Notes: generated from the letters alone by a model not told the origin. A stretch of 64,000 bases of DNA from Kiritimatiellia bacterium (GCA_050949565.1 JBMNFY010000017.1:1056001-1120000); one strand, 5' to 3'; positions 45,281-55,544 are shown, counted from the stretch's first letter. A program made the numbers and translations.

Positions 45281-45332
45281 TCCGCACGAAATAGAGTTCC
45301 ACCGCGTTGCCCATGCTGTTCGTGCTATCCAT
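45281..45332 (-). pseudogene. Truncated stub of a further metzincin tip cassette
   Basis: [18 protein letters not shown], then unrelated sequence; follows the partner stop with the TGACAGCATGG junction. Confidence 0.7.
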
Positions 45333-45336
45333 GCTG

Positions 45337-46242
45337 TCACGCCGCTTTGCGCACCCTTCTCCGCCGAACGGCGAGCCACGCCGCTACAGCGCACACCGCG
45401 AGCGCGACAAACCCTACAGCGACAGCGATGGCGACCTTCACGGGGCTTCTAGCGGGCGCGTCATCCGGCAATGGCGGAAGGTCGGGAAAACGCTTGCGCA
45501 AGTCGATGCGTTTTCTCGGAGGCACAGCCTCGATGCTTTGCTTGATTGGGAGGCATTTTTCCCGTTTCACTTCATTCTTCTTGTCTGCATCCAAGATATT
45601 TGTCCACAGGGTCAGCCTTTGCCAGCTTGTTGGATATCCCTCGCAATGCCGGAGAAGAAAATCATCCACGTGGCGAGCTTCCGAAGCAGAATACGCAAAC
45701 TGCGTATACATCACAAGAGCATCCACTAGCCGAGCTAACGTTTCCTTTGACATTTCGTTTTGTGCTATAGCAGCTTCAACTTTGTTCAGGCACGCAGGGG
45801 TTACTGCATAACGCCAACTGATGATCGTTTTATCTTCATCGTCGATCTTCAAAATCTTCGGCAGGAACGTAGCGCACTCCTCCCCCGTCGCGAGGGAAGC
45901 GTAGATTTCTGCGGCACGTGCGCGGATAAAGCGGGAGGCGTTCGTCATGAGGCTTTTCTCCTCCAAAAACGGGAGGGCCGCCCGGTCGCCCAGCTTTTCA
46001 ACCATGTTGAGCAACCCACAGAAATACGGCGCCCCCCCCCCCCAGTTTTCAGACGGGGGGTGTCCCTGATCGAGGGCGAGCACCGCCTTTTCATCTTGGT
46101 TGTACCGTTCAATCAAAAGGTCAAGGGTCCAGCCGTTCGCGAGCACCTCTTCGCGTCCCCCGCAAAGCCCGCCCCACGGGAACATAAGGGAGAGCAGGAG
46201 AAGCCGGATAAGGCTGTAGATGCTGTGTATTCGTAGTGCCAT
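45337..46242 (-). CDS. Locus B partner 4 (signal peptide, helical body, C-terminal TM anchor)
   Basis: RBS AAAGAGGAGG; LPFLEEKS..IRARAAEIY; conserved RIDLRKRFPDLPPLPDDAPARSPVKVA-TM-RRRR tail. Confidence 0.82.
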   Translation of the reverse strand: MALRIHSIYSLIRLLLLSLMFPWGGLCGGREEVLANGWTLDLLIERYNQDEKAVLALDQGHPPSENWGGGAPYFCGLLNMVEKLGDRAALPFLEEKSLMTNASRFIRARAAEIYASLATGEECATFLPKILKIDDEDKTIISWRYAVTPACLNKVEAAIAQNEMSKETLARLVDALVMYTQFAYSASEARHVDDFLLRHCEGYPTSWQRLTLWTNILDADKKNEVKREKCLPIKQSIEAVPPRKRIDLRKRFPDLPPLPDDAPARSPVKVAIAVAVGFVALAVCAVAAWLAVRRRRVRKAA

Positions 46243-46256
46243 GTTTAACCTCCTCT

Positions 46257-46712
46257 TTAATAGCTACCGGGATTCCGCTGGATAGCACTCTGGCCGACCC
46301 CGGCATTGCCCAACGTTCTGACGGTGCCGCCCCCGGCATGCCGCCACCCGTAGACGGTGCCGCGCGGCAGGCACACGCTTGCCGAAAGCGGGGGCTCGGG
46401 ACCAAAACCACCCGAGCGCATGATGAGCCGCGTGATCAACTCCCGCTGCGTCAGCCCCGGCGGATAGTAGCCCCCGCCCCAGTCGGCGGGGACACGCTCT
46501 GCGGAGACTGGCCCGGAGACCGGGTTGGGATCCGGCCCGCCGGGATTCTTGACGGTATAGATGTCTTCCAGCCCGCAGTCGTGCAGCACCTCGTGCGCGA
46601 TCACATTGGCATCACCGGCGGTCGCGATAACGATGCCCTCCGGCCAGCGTACCCCTCCAACCGCCCCACCCTCAAGCGTATCCACAAAGTATAGCTCCAC
46701 CACATTGCCCAT
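46257..46712 (-). CDS. Orphan metzincin tip cassette 3
   Basis: MGNVVELYFV...[15 protein letters not shown]...ADWGGGYY...RLIMRS. Confidence 0.8.
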   Translation of the reverse strand: MGNVVELYFVDTLEGGAVGGVRWPEGIVIATAGDANVIAHEVLHDCGLEDIYTVKNPGGPDPNPVSGPVSAERVPADWGGGYYPPGLTQRELITRLIMRSGGFGPEPPLSASVCLPRGTVYGWRHAGGGTVRTLGNAGVGQSAIQRNPGSY

Positions 46713-46716
46713 GCTG

Positions 46717-53500: not shown

Positions 53501-54509
53501 GGTCCGCGCCGGGCCGGGGGCGGATGAAGTACTCGAAATCGCCGTCCGGGTGGAGGCGGCACTGGAGGTCGGCCTTGGCCTCCTCGATCCGCCCGAGCAT
53601 CAGGCTGTTCCAGGTGACGGTGTGAAGGCCGCCGGTCCCGGCCGCGGACCAGAGCCGCCCCTCCGGCGGCAGGAGGCCCGAGGGGGTCTGCAGCACCGAG
53701 AGGACGCGGTTGGAGGCGGGATCGGGGAAGGCGGGCGCGGCGGGCGCGAGCCGGCCGGGCAGGCCGTCCAGCAGGAGCATGCCCGACGGCGCGGCGCACA
53801 CGGCGGTGACGAAGCGGGAGTAATCCTCGAGGCCGCCCGCGTTGAAGCCGGACGGCAGGGGCACCCACCAGGCGTCGTCGTGGACGCCGTGCCCCGAGAC
53901 GTAATCGGTGACGGCCGCGCCGGCGGGCGGCGCGAAGTCGTGGGCGGCGTTGGTCGCGGCGTGCGTGAGCGCGAAGCATGCGTCGTACTGCGCCTGCGTC
54001 AGGCGGTTCGTGTAACGCGGCGGCGGGACGAAGCCGTCCGCCGGGGGCGGCATGAGGCAGGCGGGCGGCACGCCCCGGGTGGCTGACGCGGGCAGCTGGC
54101 CCCGGGCGGACGGCGCGGACGCCTGGCCCTGGGCGGATGACGGGGACGCCTGGCCTTGCGTGGATGATGCGGACGGCTGGCCCTGGGCGGGTGACGCGGG
54201 CGGCTGGCCTTGCGTGGATGACGAGGACGACTGGCCCTGGGCGGGCGGCGAAGGCGGCCCGGGCTTCGAGCCTCCGTAGCGGACCGCCTCCGCGAACATG
54301 AAGAGCACGGCCAGGACGACGAGCACGGAGGTGCGCCTGACCCAGTCGCGGAAGCGCCGGGTCTCCGCGAGGAGATACCGGAGCGCGCCGCACGCGGCGG
54401 GCAGGAGCGCGGCCGCGGCCAGGAACAGGCAGCACGCGCAGACGAGAAGATGCCGCGCGCGGAGCAGCGCCTCTTCGTTCAGGAGTGAAAAGATTTTGGC
54501 GGTGACCAC
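50586..54509 (-). CDS. Locus B large membrane-anchored/exported protein (1307 aa) with DxDGDG loops, Cys-rich region and C-terminal metzincin-type peptidase tip
   Basis: Two N-terminal hydrophobic helices then YGGSKP; 9-aa QGQ repeats; [12 protein letters not shown] and [44 protein letters not shown] plus downstream LIM. Confidence 0.85.
54080..54245 (-). repeat. 27-bp (9-aa) degenerate tandem repeat in the trunk linker
   Basis: [54 protein letters not shown]; copy C (~32855-32995) has one unit fewer. Confidence 0.75.
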
Positions 54510-54518
54510 GGCATCCCC

Positions 54519-55112
54519 CTACTTGATCGTCAGGACGATGCCGTCGGCGCCCGCGGCGACCTCGGCCGCGCCCTCCACGCCGTGCCCGCGCGCGGTCACG
54601 CGCACCGTCCCGTTCTCCAGCGCGGAGAGCGGCACCCAGCCGGCCGCCCGCGCGCCGCACGCGGCGGGCGTCCCGTCGACCGACAGGACGAGGCGCGGGC
54701 CGGATGTCGCGGAGCGCAGCCACAGCACGGCCTCCAGCAGGCGCGGCCCCGCCGCGCCCGCCTCCTCCAGCCGCTCCCATGCGGACGCGCCCGGACGCCG
54801 GACGAACCAGACGCCGTTGTCCCAGCCCAGCGCGGCCGCCTGCTCGCGCAGCGAGAGCCGGCCGTCGCCGTCCGCGTCCGCGCCGAAGGCGATCGCGAGG
54901 CCGTTGGACGGCGAGGCGTTGAAAGACATCGAGACCTTGATGAAGTCCTTGCCGGCCAGCGGCGGCACGGCGAGGTGGACGCATCTCTCGGTGTCGGCGG
55001 AGACGGGCGGCGGGACCGCCGTGCTGACGATGTCCGCGCCGGACACCAGGAGGGCGGCAGCGGCGGCCGCCAGAAAAACGGCGGCGCATCGGAATGCGGC
55101 AAAACCTTTCAT
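54519..55112 (-). CDS. Locus B leader gene: secreted protein with a DADGDG loop
   Basis: ATG 55112, signal peptide, FGADADGDGRLS, ends GIVLTIK*. Confidence 0.7.
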   Translation of the reverse strand: MKGFAAFRCAAVFLAAAAAALLVSGADIVSTAVPPPVSADTERCVHLAVPPLAGKDFIKVSMSFNASPSNGLAIAFGADADGDGRLSLREQAAALGWDNGVWFVRRPGASAWERLEEAGAAGPRLLEAVLWLRSATSGPRLVLSVDGTPAACGARAAGWVPLSALENGTVRVTARGHGVEGAAEVAAGADGIVLTIK

Positions 55113-55399
55113 TGACGGAACTCCTTCCCCTCTTTGCACGGAAAGGGCGCGAACCCCGCTCCGTGCCTCAACCGAGGTACCGGCAAGCACCCACCAAGAA
55201 GCCCGGGGACGGGGCCGCGCCACGAGGGCGCGTCCCCGTGCATCCCGCTTCTTGGTAAAAACTGCCGGTCTTTCGGTTGAAGCGTCATGCGCGAAAGCGC
55301 AAAAATCAGCGTGTCGAGGGGTCTTTTCTATCTCATGCGTTCATTGCTTCATGCGTTCATTGCTCAGGCTGAACGTCCACCGCGAACGATCTGCCTCGG

Positions 55400-55428
55400 A
55401 TCATACCCTTTTCAGACAGTGACCGCAA
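55400..55428 (-). promoter_or_regulatory. Predicted sigma70-type promoter of locus B
   Basis: TTGCGG-N17-TATGAT, conserved with locus C. Confidence 0.5.
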
Positions 55429-55544
55429 CCGGTTTTTATGAGCGGTTGCGGCGCACAGAAACATTTGTATCGAAGGCAACACGTTCACGGCGTTTGACAT
55501 CCCGTTGAAACCGGAAGCCTGAGACCAAAAACGACGTTTCGGCC

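Follow-up and report, generated by a model that had tools for sequence, protein, structure and literature searches.

What kind of system is encoded by a row of co-oriented genes in which a long trunk ends in a protease domain and is followed by further, separate protease domains, each with a neighbouring gene of its own? The question is raised by locus B, a minus-strand gene row at positions 45222-55437 of a 64,000-nucleotide (nt) stretch of DNA from a Kiritimatiellia bacterium (GCA_050949565.1, JBMNFY010000017.1:1056001-1120000; the whole stretch is called the window below). A first-pass annotation, made from the sequence alone, had read this row as a non-RHS polymorphic toxin-like system with swappable metalloprotease tips and membrane-anchored partners. 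Polymorphic toxins are a main currency of bacterial competition. Our analysis indicates that locus B is probably a polymorphic toxin/immunity locus used in antagonism between bacteria. The observations behind this reading are the anatomy of the locus, the fold of the tip and the conservation of its catalytic motif, the covariation of tips with partners, two homology arms, differing tips on near-identical trunks, and a head domain shared with Rhs toxins. The genome to which the window belongs (G000) is 92% complete, and the absence of a family from it is thus not proven.

All elements named by the annotation are present on the minus strand: a leader gene, a main gene encoding the trunk with its C-terminal tip, a partner gene (p0), three orphan tip/partner pairs (O1/p1, O2/p2 and O3/p3) and a terminal tip stub (Table 1). 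The row is tightly coupled, with a gap of 10 nt between the leader and the main gene, a 4-nt ATGA overlap between p0 and O1, and a 43-nt overlap between p1 and O2, and it is intact from the leader through p3. The orphan tips do open with sequence of the main gene: the junction homologies are true direct repeats in the DNA (families D8, D11, D12, D16 and D17; for the stub, D16 pairs 45280-45332 with 49682-49734 at 94% identity), and the protein alignment agrees. O2 begins at the upstream junction segment of the tip, so that the full domain is present; O1, O3 and the stub begin at a later common segment and hence lack the first ~90 amino acids (aa) of the protease domain. The base composition also follows the annotation, with a GC content of 0.753 in the leader and 0.747 in the trunk versus 0.60-0.66 in the tips and 0.54-0.56 in the partners (genome, 0.604).

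The nature of the tip was addressed by structure prediction and by sequence search. A single-sequence AlphaFold prediction reached a pLDDT of 34.5, and an alignment-based model (pLDDT 90.6, pTM 0.89) was used in its place. The top Foldseek matches to this model are PAPP-A (E 4e-6), ADAM8, ulilysin and mirolysin, the first three with probability 1.0. A structure search independent of Foldseek (VIA) yields ulilysin (Z 12.4 over 180 residues, rmsd 4.0), adamalysin (Z 12.2), mirolysin (Z 11.8) and fragilysin (Z 9.4), the matches to ulilysin, adamalysin, mirolysin, ADAMs and fragilysin spanning Z 9-12.4 over 150-190 residues. When the last 238 residues of the main protein were compared by phmmer with 1.84 billion proteins, 338 representative proteins were matched at E<=1e-3, 122 at E<=1e-10 and 18 at E<=1e-30. 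Among the best 150 matches, the matching region lies at or near the C-terminus of proteins 60 to 2968 aa long, and the motif HExxHxxGxxD is found within the last 260 residues in 124. Across 39 aligned tip sequences, residues H132, E133, H136, D142 and M186 do not vary, and the main tip, O1, O2, O3 and the tip of the paralogous locus A (see below) all have an intact catalytic motif. The fold matches, the extended zinc motif and the invariant Met together place the tip among the metzincins. The metalloprotease call of the annotation is therefore upheld for the main copy and all orphans, and the tip is, by its model, a metzincin-fold zinc protease that carries Asp at the position of the third ligand and falls into none of the curated families tested.

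In particular, the structure and profile searches lead to a metzincin fold, yet no tip matches a Pfam family at E<=1 or reaches a Pfam or NCBIfam cut-off. The likeness to known metzincins (ulilysin/pappalysin M43, adamalysin/reprolysin M12B and snapalysin M7) lies in the fold, the extended zinc motif and the invariant Met, whereas the sequence similarity is marginal (PDB sequence profile search with the tips: adamalysins E 2e-4 as the best match, snapalysin 0.3, ulilysin 0.7). The third zinc ligand of M12B and M43 peptidases is His. Membership in M12B was rejected, since the third-ligand position holds Asp and the Reprolysin models stay under the gathering score: the window tips have no match to Pfam Reprolysin, and distant members of the tip family score 15-21.5 bits against cut-offs of 22.4-27. 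The motif HExxHxxGxxD is also that of snapalysin, whose third zinc ligand is Asp; the snapalysin domain is small (~130 aa versus ~230 aa), and its similarity to the tip amounts to Z 7.0 over 119 residues and a PDB profile E of 0.31 over 20 residues. All tips belong to one protease family (32-95% identity), whose profile is present in 4 of 201 genomes sampled across the class.

The five partners in the window have a single architecture, in which an N-terminal signal-like segment is followed by a variable helical domain, an invariant 'R.DLRKRFPDLPPLP' stretch, a transmembrane (TM) helix and a basic tail; in p0, a Pro-rich linker lies between the helical variable domain and the C-terminal TM anchor. 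The signal segment is seen by eye in all five, of which p0, p1 and the locus A partner alone reach the threshold of the scan. A lipoprotein signal was considered and rejected, as inspection of the sequences by eye revealed no canonical lipobox. From this topology, a domain that faces the periplasm and is held at the inner membrane is predicted, in agreement with the membrane-anchored partners of the annotation. A search for the partner family gave 187 clusters at E<=1e-3 out of 3844 candidates; their annotation, if any, is 'hypothetical', and the organism labels, where given, are Kiritimatiellae/Kiritimatiellia only.

Tips and partners vary together. Among nine tip/partner pairs (seven from G000 and one each from the congeners G004 and G006), tip identity correlates with partner identity (Pearson 0.86, 36 pairs; a value that none of 5000 Mantel permutations attained). 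The last 75 residues of the partners are 64-92% identical between cassettes, and the remainder is 22-91% identical, with a median of 33%. The partner stands immediately downstream of the tip in 4/4 locus B cassettes, and also in loci A and C, on contig C15, and in the genomes G004, G006, G029 and G345. In G029, from the same order, an orphan metzincin tip fragment and a 351-aa partner with a signal peptide and a C-terminal anchor lie ~2 kb past one head locus (head loci are described below); in G345, from a different family, tips alternate with signal-peptide/anchored partners in a partner/tip/partner array. These comparisons indicate that tip and partner travel as units; covariation is no proof of binding. 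Prediction of a complex between the tip and the partner ectodomain returned a score of 0.00 and no verdict, and is used as evidence neither way. The ratio of nonsynonymous to synonymous divergence (dN/dS) of tips and partners, orphans included, is 0.11-0.47 (O1, 0.17); the orphans are thus maintained as coding sequence.

The same orphan array, consisting of a partial partner, a 152-aa tip and a 277-aa partner, was found in G000 at C14:43883-45829 and at C15:120556-122502, one of the two at a contig end; it is either a true duplication or an assembly duplicate.

Truncated cassettes behind one gene also call to mind surface variation, for which pilE/pilS is the model: gene conversion would alter an exposed tip to evade phages, predators or antibodies, and the partner would help with anchoring or assembly. 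Cassettes that are 5'-truncated, presumably silent and homologous at the junction, lying behind a single gene taken as the expressed one, are what this explanation expects, and a trunk formed by a long low-complexity stalk fits it too, but every cassette carries a full partner gene covarying with the tip, the invariant catalytic motif suggests that enzyme activity and not mere shape is conserved, and related heads bear lipase and Rhs toxins. We consider surface variation quite improbable.

The reading of locus B as a toxin locus gains further ground from its paralogues, locus A in the same window and locus C on contig C2 of G000. Both share with locus B the upstream region, the 5' end of the leader and the trunk. 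The upstream region aligns in blastn at 86-87% in each comparison (55291-55437/55440), the direct repeat D19 pairing 55349-55437 with 33506-33594 at 97%; the trunk of B is 96% identical to A over 54521-51293 and 94% identical to C over 54521-51089. Identity is then lost across the tip and the partner, and is regained at the partner 3' end (49950-49737, 77-89%). Identity at the trunk/tip junction and at the partner 3' end means that the variable cassette is framed by two homology arms. The trunks of A, B and C are 93-96% identical and their tips 39-52%; synonymous divergence (dS) is 0.03 between trunks B and C and 0.29-0.77 between tips, a pattern that points to old tips on young or homogenised trunks. 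For trunk B (51303-54509) compared with C2:49489-52632, dS of 0.03 is accompanied by dN/dS of 0.90; this fits very recent duplication or ongoing gene conversion of the trunk, with little constraint visible where divergence is so low.

Which tip stands behind the trunk differs between loci and between genomes. Locus C has as its main tip a domain of the type that is an orphan in locus B (O2, 87% identity), and the partners are of corresponding types. In the congener G006, the trunk (88%) bears an A-type tip (84%) and an A-type partner (88%), with a further orphan tip that has no counterpart behind locus A. The G004 tip is a mosaic, its first residues being identical to the locus B main tip and its C-terminus being of the O2 type. 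Comparison of related genomes had been proposed in the first-pass annotation as a check for tip replacement, and tips are indeed not invariant; near-identical trunks with different tips, both in G000 and in a congener, suggest that the tips are exchangeable. No recombinant trunk-tip junctions were shown in four public runs present as short Logan contigs. The joints and loose ends found there (for example, 46487->51293 and a loose end at 51293) match sequence of the paralogous locus A, and uncovered stretches in run X19 prove nothing.

Not all copies are complete. The trunk of locus A consists of two open reading frames (ORFs) with a frame break near 32100, the leader of locus A has lost an internal part of ~450 nt, and the same deletion is present in locus C. 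At C15:77524-82125 (L007, L010, L053), a 475-aa ORF consists of the leader fused to the last ~75 trunk residues and an O2-type tip, the trunk being deleted; behind this ORF there are a partner and an orphan tip, and the next partner is broken by an opposite-strand 419-aa transposase-like ORF.

The constant part of the system consists of the leader and the trunk. All trunk features listed in the annotation are present (two N-terminal TM helices, DxDGDG loops and a Cys cluster), and the main protein has no match at E<=1 to YD/RHS, FHA, PAAR or LXG families in Pfam and NCBIfam. The same databases gave no TPS, filamentous haemagglutinin or DUF1020-type match for it and no recognised trafficking domain. 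Beyond the head domain and the TSP3 repeats, the trunk is a long low-complexity Ala/Gly/Pro-rich stalk with the Cys cluster, followed by an Ig-like domain ahead of the tip. The TM-pair arrangement recurs in the distant homologues P0036, P0069 and P0077 and in G029 proteins, similar Cys clusters occur in P0006, P0008 and P0036, and identical or near-identical main proteins are found in public collections (P0271, 99% over aa 135-450). A homologue search with aa 135-450 is dominated by the TSP3 repeats, most matches covering ~20% of the query; with aa 140-384, only 11 close relatives were retrieved from a large protein collection. The head domain matches no Pfam family, and its lead in the ESM Atlas, a NIDO-like one, has a score of 0.81, under the chance level stated for the tool. 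The leader, if started at 55112 (MKGF...), has a signal-peptide-like hydrophobic N-terminal segment in the hydropathy scan. Pfam, NCBIfam and PDB offer no match to it, its alignment retrieved nothing meaningful when used as a profile against PDB, and in the ESM Atlas it meets unnamed clusters only.

Leader and head are nevertheless shared with toxins of a known class. The trunk segment aa ~140-445 recurs in many large proteins, and the full protein is matched in 27 of 41 related genomes at E<=1e-10; the head has a narrow phyletic distribution and was found in only 2 genomes when 201 of high quality were sampled from the whole phylum. The head domain is 35-37% identical to 13 genes of G029 and to four further paralogues in G000. 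The 13 G029 genes (35-36% identity in the head) have N-termini near-identical among themselves and different C-termini. Single ORFs of 2460-2547 aa in G029 join the head to RHS_repeat, and at the head loci there are ORFs with a T6SS_Tle1-like phospholipase domain as their C-terminus (E 5e-35 and 9e-36). Each head-bearing toxin gene examined, among them the Rhs-type ones in G029 and the paralogues in G000, has a leader homologue as its immediate upstream neighbour. On contig C10 of G000 (C10:273179-300147, loci L070 and L071), a leader paralogue and a head gene are followed by a same-direction RHS-bearing ORF of 1693 aa and then by six RHS-bearing orphan ORFs (547-1044 aa) that alternate with small exported ORFs; between the head ORF and the first Rhs ORF there is an overlap, the two being in different frames. 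The label 'non-RHS' given in the annotation thus holds for the locus B trunk, which has no RHS_repeat at E<=1, but not for the system as a whole, whose leader and head are common to true Rhs toxins. This sharing strengthens the toxin reading and means that the system is not a wholly separate invention. By homology, the leader and head families appear to belong to polymorphic toxins, those with Rhs and Tle1-like tips included.

A tandem duplicate of a distant paralogue unit, each with a 199-aa leader and a ~1282-aa head+metzincin protein, lies at C17:1934636-1948619 in G000. Behind its first copy there are two ~295-aa exported partner-like proteins without a TM anchor, whose C-terminus 'PHFEAVKAEIEKTPTAKRKDF' is similar to the partner motif.

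Put together, these features suggest the following mechanism. The head (two TM helices, a domain of ~250 aa and the TSP3 repeats) and the co-transcribed exported leader would handle export or presentation, and the stalk with its Cys cluster and Ig-like domain would carry the C-terminal metzincin as a toxic tip. The variable helical domain of the partner, held in the periplasm by its inner-membrane tether, would bind and block the protease delivered by sister cells or by the cell itself. Given a periplasm-facing, tethered partner, the protease is expected to act in the envelope of the target cell. The downstream orphan tip/partner cassettes would serve as a reservoir. In homologous recombination, the conserved 5' segments of the tips could pair on the upstream side and the conserved partner 3' end on the downstream side, which would put a new tip with its partner behind the trunk. 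We thus infer toxicity, cognate immunity, a periplasmic site of action and switching from the arrangement of the locus. All tests run agree with the polymorphic-toxin-type interpretation of the annotation, namely the metzincin tip, the covarying cassettes, the two homology arms, and the differing tips on near-identical trunks.

Of the features that characterize polymorphic toxins in the sense of Zhang et al. 2012, locus B has a constant N-terminal and central part, a variable C-terminus, a downstream cognate gene and standalone cassettes; no recognised trafficking domain was found in the main protein, and a search of G000 for TssC, Hcp, PAAR and Phage_sheath_1 revealed no recognised secretion system. 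As the annotation had stated, there is no delivery apparatus visible in the window. A TpsB-type (ShlB) partner has no match in G000, but no control genome matched either. Our tentative proposal, in which we place somewhat less than even confidence, is that the leader and the TM-hairpin/head form an undescribed export or delivery route for Kiritimatiellia polymorphic toxins, independent of the type V, VI and VII secretion systems (T5SS, T6SS and T7SS). Rhs-encapsulated toxins and naked metzincin tips alike would travel by such a route, the metzincin branch having inner-membrane-tethered periplasmic inhibitors as immunity proteins, whose conserved anchor would double as the 3' recombination arm.

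Several observations weigh against a toxin locus. Simple linkage would also give covariation, which therefore speaks for unit behaviour and not for binding. The gene-wide dN/dS is below 1, giving no arms-race (positive selection) signal at this resolution. All tips are of one fold, and distant members of the tip family carry dockerin or clostripain domains and look like degradative exoenzymes. The two N-terminal TM helices could merely hold the protein in the inner membrane of the producer. TssC (PF05943), Hcp (PF05638) and PAAR (PF05488) have no matches in G000, nor was the phage-type sheath Phage_sheath_1 found there. No RNA runs are among the public runs that match the locus. Finally, there are signs of decay: the frame break in trunk A, the internally deleted leaders of A and C, a split partner in locus C, and the C15 copy without a trunk and with an inserted insertion sequence (IS) element.

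A part of these points would suit a secreted or surface metzincin used in nutrition, with a periplasmic inhibitor that protects the producer itself, the copies being ordinary paralogue expansion and decay. The serralysin AprA with its periplasmic inhibitor AprI/Inh is the model for such a system. Fusions of distant tip-family members to dockerin or to clostripain C11 and Big_2 domains, the 13 tip matches in G000 at E<=1e-10 with several architectures, a TM anchor suited to a cell-bound enzyme, and the negative search for a toxin-delivery machine (TssC, Hcp, PAAR and a phage-type sheath) all agree with it. It leaves aside the fact that O1 and O3, devoid of the first ~90 residues of the catalytic domain, start exactly at the segment shared with the main gene and are under purifying selection; moreover, the variable cassette is bounded by two homology arms, old and differing tips stand on near-identical trunks, and the leader and head families also stand in front of Rhs toxins that bear a Tle1-like tip and of Rhs orphan arrays. 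A nutritional protease, though the main rival, is thus an unlikely explanation of locus B.

The signs of decay, together with the lack of an RNA run holding the locus, could also mean that the locus is a largely defunct remnant of a decaying repeat family, no longer expressed or functional. Against this stand the intact row from the leader to p3, the low dN/dS of tips and partners, and the persistence of the locus in public sequencing runs: the segment 45200-51500 is kept nearly unchanged (86-89% of sampled words) in 14 public runs from 8 studies dated 2016-2025, labelled as anaerobic digester, bioreactor or biogas metagenomes, and five further runs hold 38-63%. We regard this explanation as the least probable of those considered here, and polymorphic toxin/immunity as the preferred one.

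Among known systems, locus B most readily calls for comparison with Rhs loci that have orphan Rhs-CT/immunity arrays. Common to both are a conserved trunk, a variable C-terminal tip, a downstream cognate gene, and 5'-truncated junction-homologous cassettes, and the leader/head family of locus B precedes true Rhs loci in C10 and G029. The differences are that the locus B trunk has no RHS/YD repeats and hence no encapsulating shell, and no PAAR; that its tips are of one protease fold, unlike typical Rhs or CdiA arrays with their unrelated domains; and that its partners are membrane-anchored, their conserved 3' end being a second homology arm. Membership in the Rhs/YD class was rejected, as the 1307-aa protein contains no RHS_repeat at the threshold given above. 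CdiA/CdiI and MafB/MafI loci resemble locus B in the fixed junction motif that parts the constant from the variable region (VENN is the junction motif of CdiA) and in the orphan modules downstream; they differ in that locus B has no TPS, FHA or DUF1020-type match in Pfam or NCBIfam, and membership in these two classes was rejected on this ground.

That a zinc-metallopeptidase toxin can act in the periplasm and be opposed by an immunity protein of its own has a precedent in the C-terminal domain of VgrG2b, for which Wood et al. 2019 (PMC6899460) describe activity in the bacterial periplasm and the immunity protein PA0261. VgrG2b is fused to the T6SS spike, whereas in G000 TssC, Hcp and PAAR were not found, and membership of the main protein among T6SS effectors was rejected for the same reason; the immunity candidate of locus B differs in being anchored by a C-terminal TM helix, and the likeness is one of description, no sequence relation being claimed. 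HExxH domains at polymorphic toxin C-termini are described by Zhang et al. 2012 (PMC3482391) as Tox-MPTase1-5, Tox-HopH1 and PVC-metallopeptidase; the table in that paper lists no immunity protein for Tox-MPTase1-5 or Tox-HopH1, and TSP3 is absent from its main text, whereas its supplementary tables may list related tips or TSP3 architectures. The locus B tips share with Tox-MPTase1-5 and Tox-HopH1 a C-terminal HExxH metallopeptidase, but have no Pfam match at E<=1, and membership in Tox-MPTase1-5 was rejected accordingly. We assume here that the Tox-MPTase and Tox-HopH1 models are part of Pfam. Literature searches yielded no paper joining Kiritimatiellota with 'polymorphic toxin', nor Kiritimatiellae with Rhs and toxin.

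Table 1. Features of locus B, and the paralogous locus A, in the window.
Feature	Position	Strand	Basis or remark
Conserved upstream region, promoter candidate	55224..55437	(-)	Common to three trunk loci
Leader gene (accessory protein, ~197 aa, predicted exported)	54519..55223	(-)	ORF; likely start 55112
Main trunk+tip gene, 1307 aa	50586..54509	(-)	ORF
Two predicted TM helices (aa 14-32, 57-75), Arg-rich loop, then Q/G/S/P-rich linker	54285..54470	(-)	Hydropathy scan
Head domain, aa 140-384, ~250 aa	53358..54092	(-)	Found in Rhs-type toxins within the order too
Bacterial TSP3 calcium-binding repeats, DxDGDG loops (aa 385-450)	53160..53357	(-)	Pfam TSP3_bac E 6.5e-9, aa 414-436, 2 stretches
Trunk Cys cluster (aa 702-726, 782-787)	52149..52406	(-)	Cys positions
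Main tip, metzincin-fold zinc metalloprotease by model (aa 1070-1307)	50589..51302	(-)	Zinc motif at about 50877-50909
Partner p0, 279 aa, candidate immunity protein	49734..50573	(-)	ORF, alignment, hydropathy
Orphan tip O1	49276..49737	(-)	80% identity to main tip over common part
Partner p1, 277 aa	48436..49269	(-)	86% identity to p0
Orphan tip O2, whole protease domain	47705..48478	(-)	87% identity to locus C main tip (contig C2) and C15 tip
Partner p2, 325 aa	46717..47694	(-)	89% to C15 partner behind O2-type tip; 89.5% to G004 partner
Orphan tip O3	46257..46754	(-)	Homology from SMGNVVELYFV; 82% identity to C15 orphan; catalytic motif intact
Partner p3, 301 aa	45337..46242	(-)	ORF, alignment
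Terminal tip stub	45222..45332	(-)	18 homologous codons, 18 unrelated codons, stop
Paralogous locus A	28388..33594	(-)	Trunk 96% DNA identity; tip 39% identity; own partner; no orphans

The ends of loci B and A are adjoined by 468-aa ORFs with a twin-arginine-like signal, at 43759-45165 (-) and 26930-28336 (+), respectively, which, judging by eye, resemble Gfo/Idh/MocA-type oxidoreductases.

The logic of the locus B layout is that of Rhs, CdiA and MafB loci, and metallopeptidase tips are already known in polymorphic toxins. What is new are the parts: a head with its accessory leader, neither of them from a known family, metzincin tips that form a family with Asp at the third-ligand position, and a family of anchored helical partners; to these we add the proposed role of the conserved partner end as a recombination arm and the apparent absence of a known toxin-delivery machine. 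To our knowledge, polymorphic toxins have been described almost exclusively in cultured Proteobacteria, Firmicutes and Bacteroidota whose secretion machines are defined. Locus B would bring the same evolutionary logic to a Kiritimatiellia lineage that has not been cultured and is met repeatedly in anaerobic digesters and bioreactors. Its tips and partners offer a tractable family of putative protease/inhibitor pairs for studies of specificity, and a clear example of a candidate immunity gene whose conserved end could serve as a recombination arm. Moreover, as the same head also carries Rhs toxins, the leader and head are candidates for a new delivery route.

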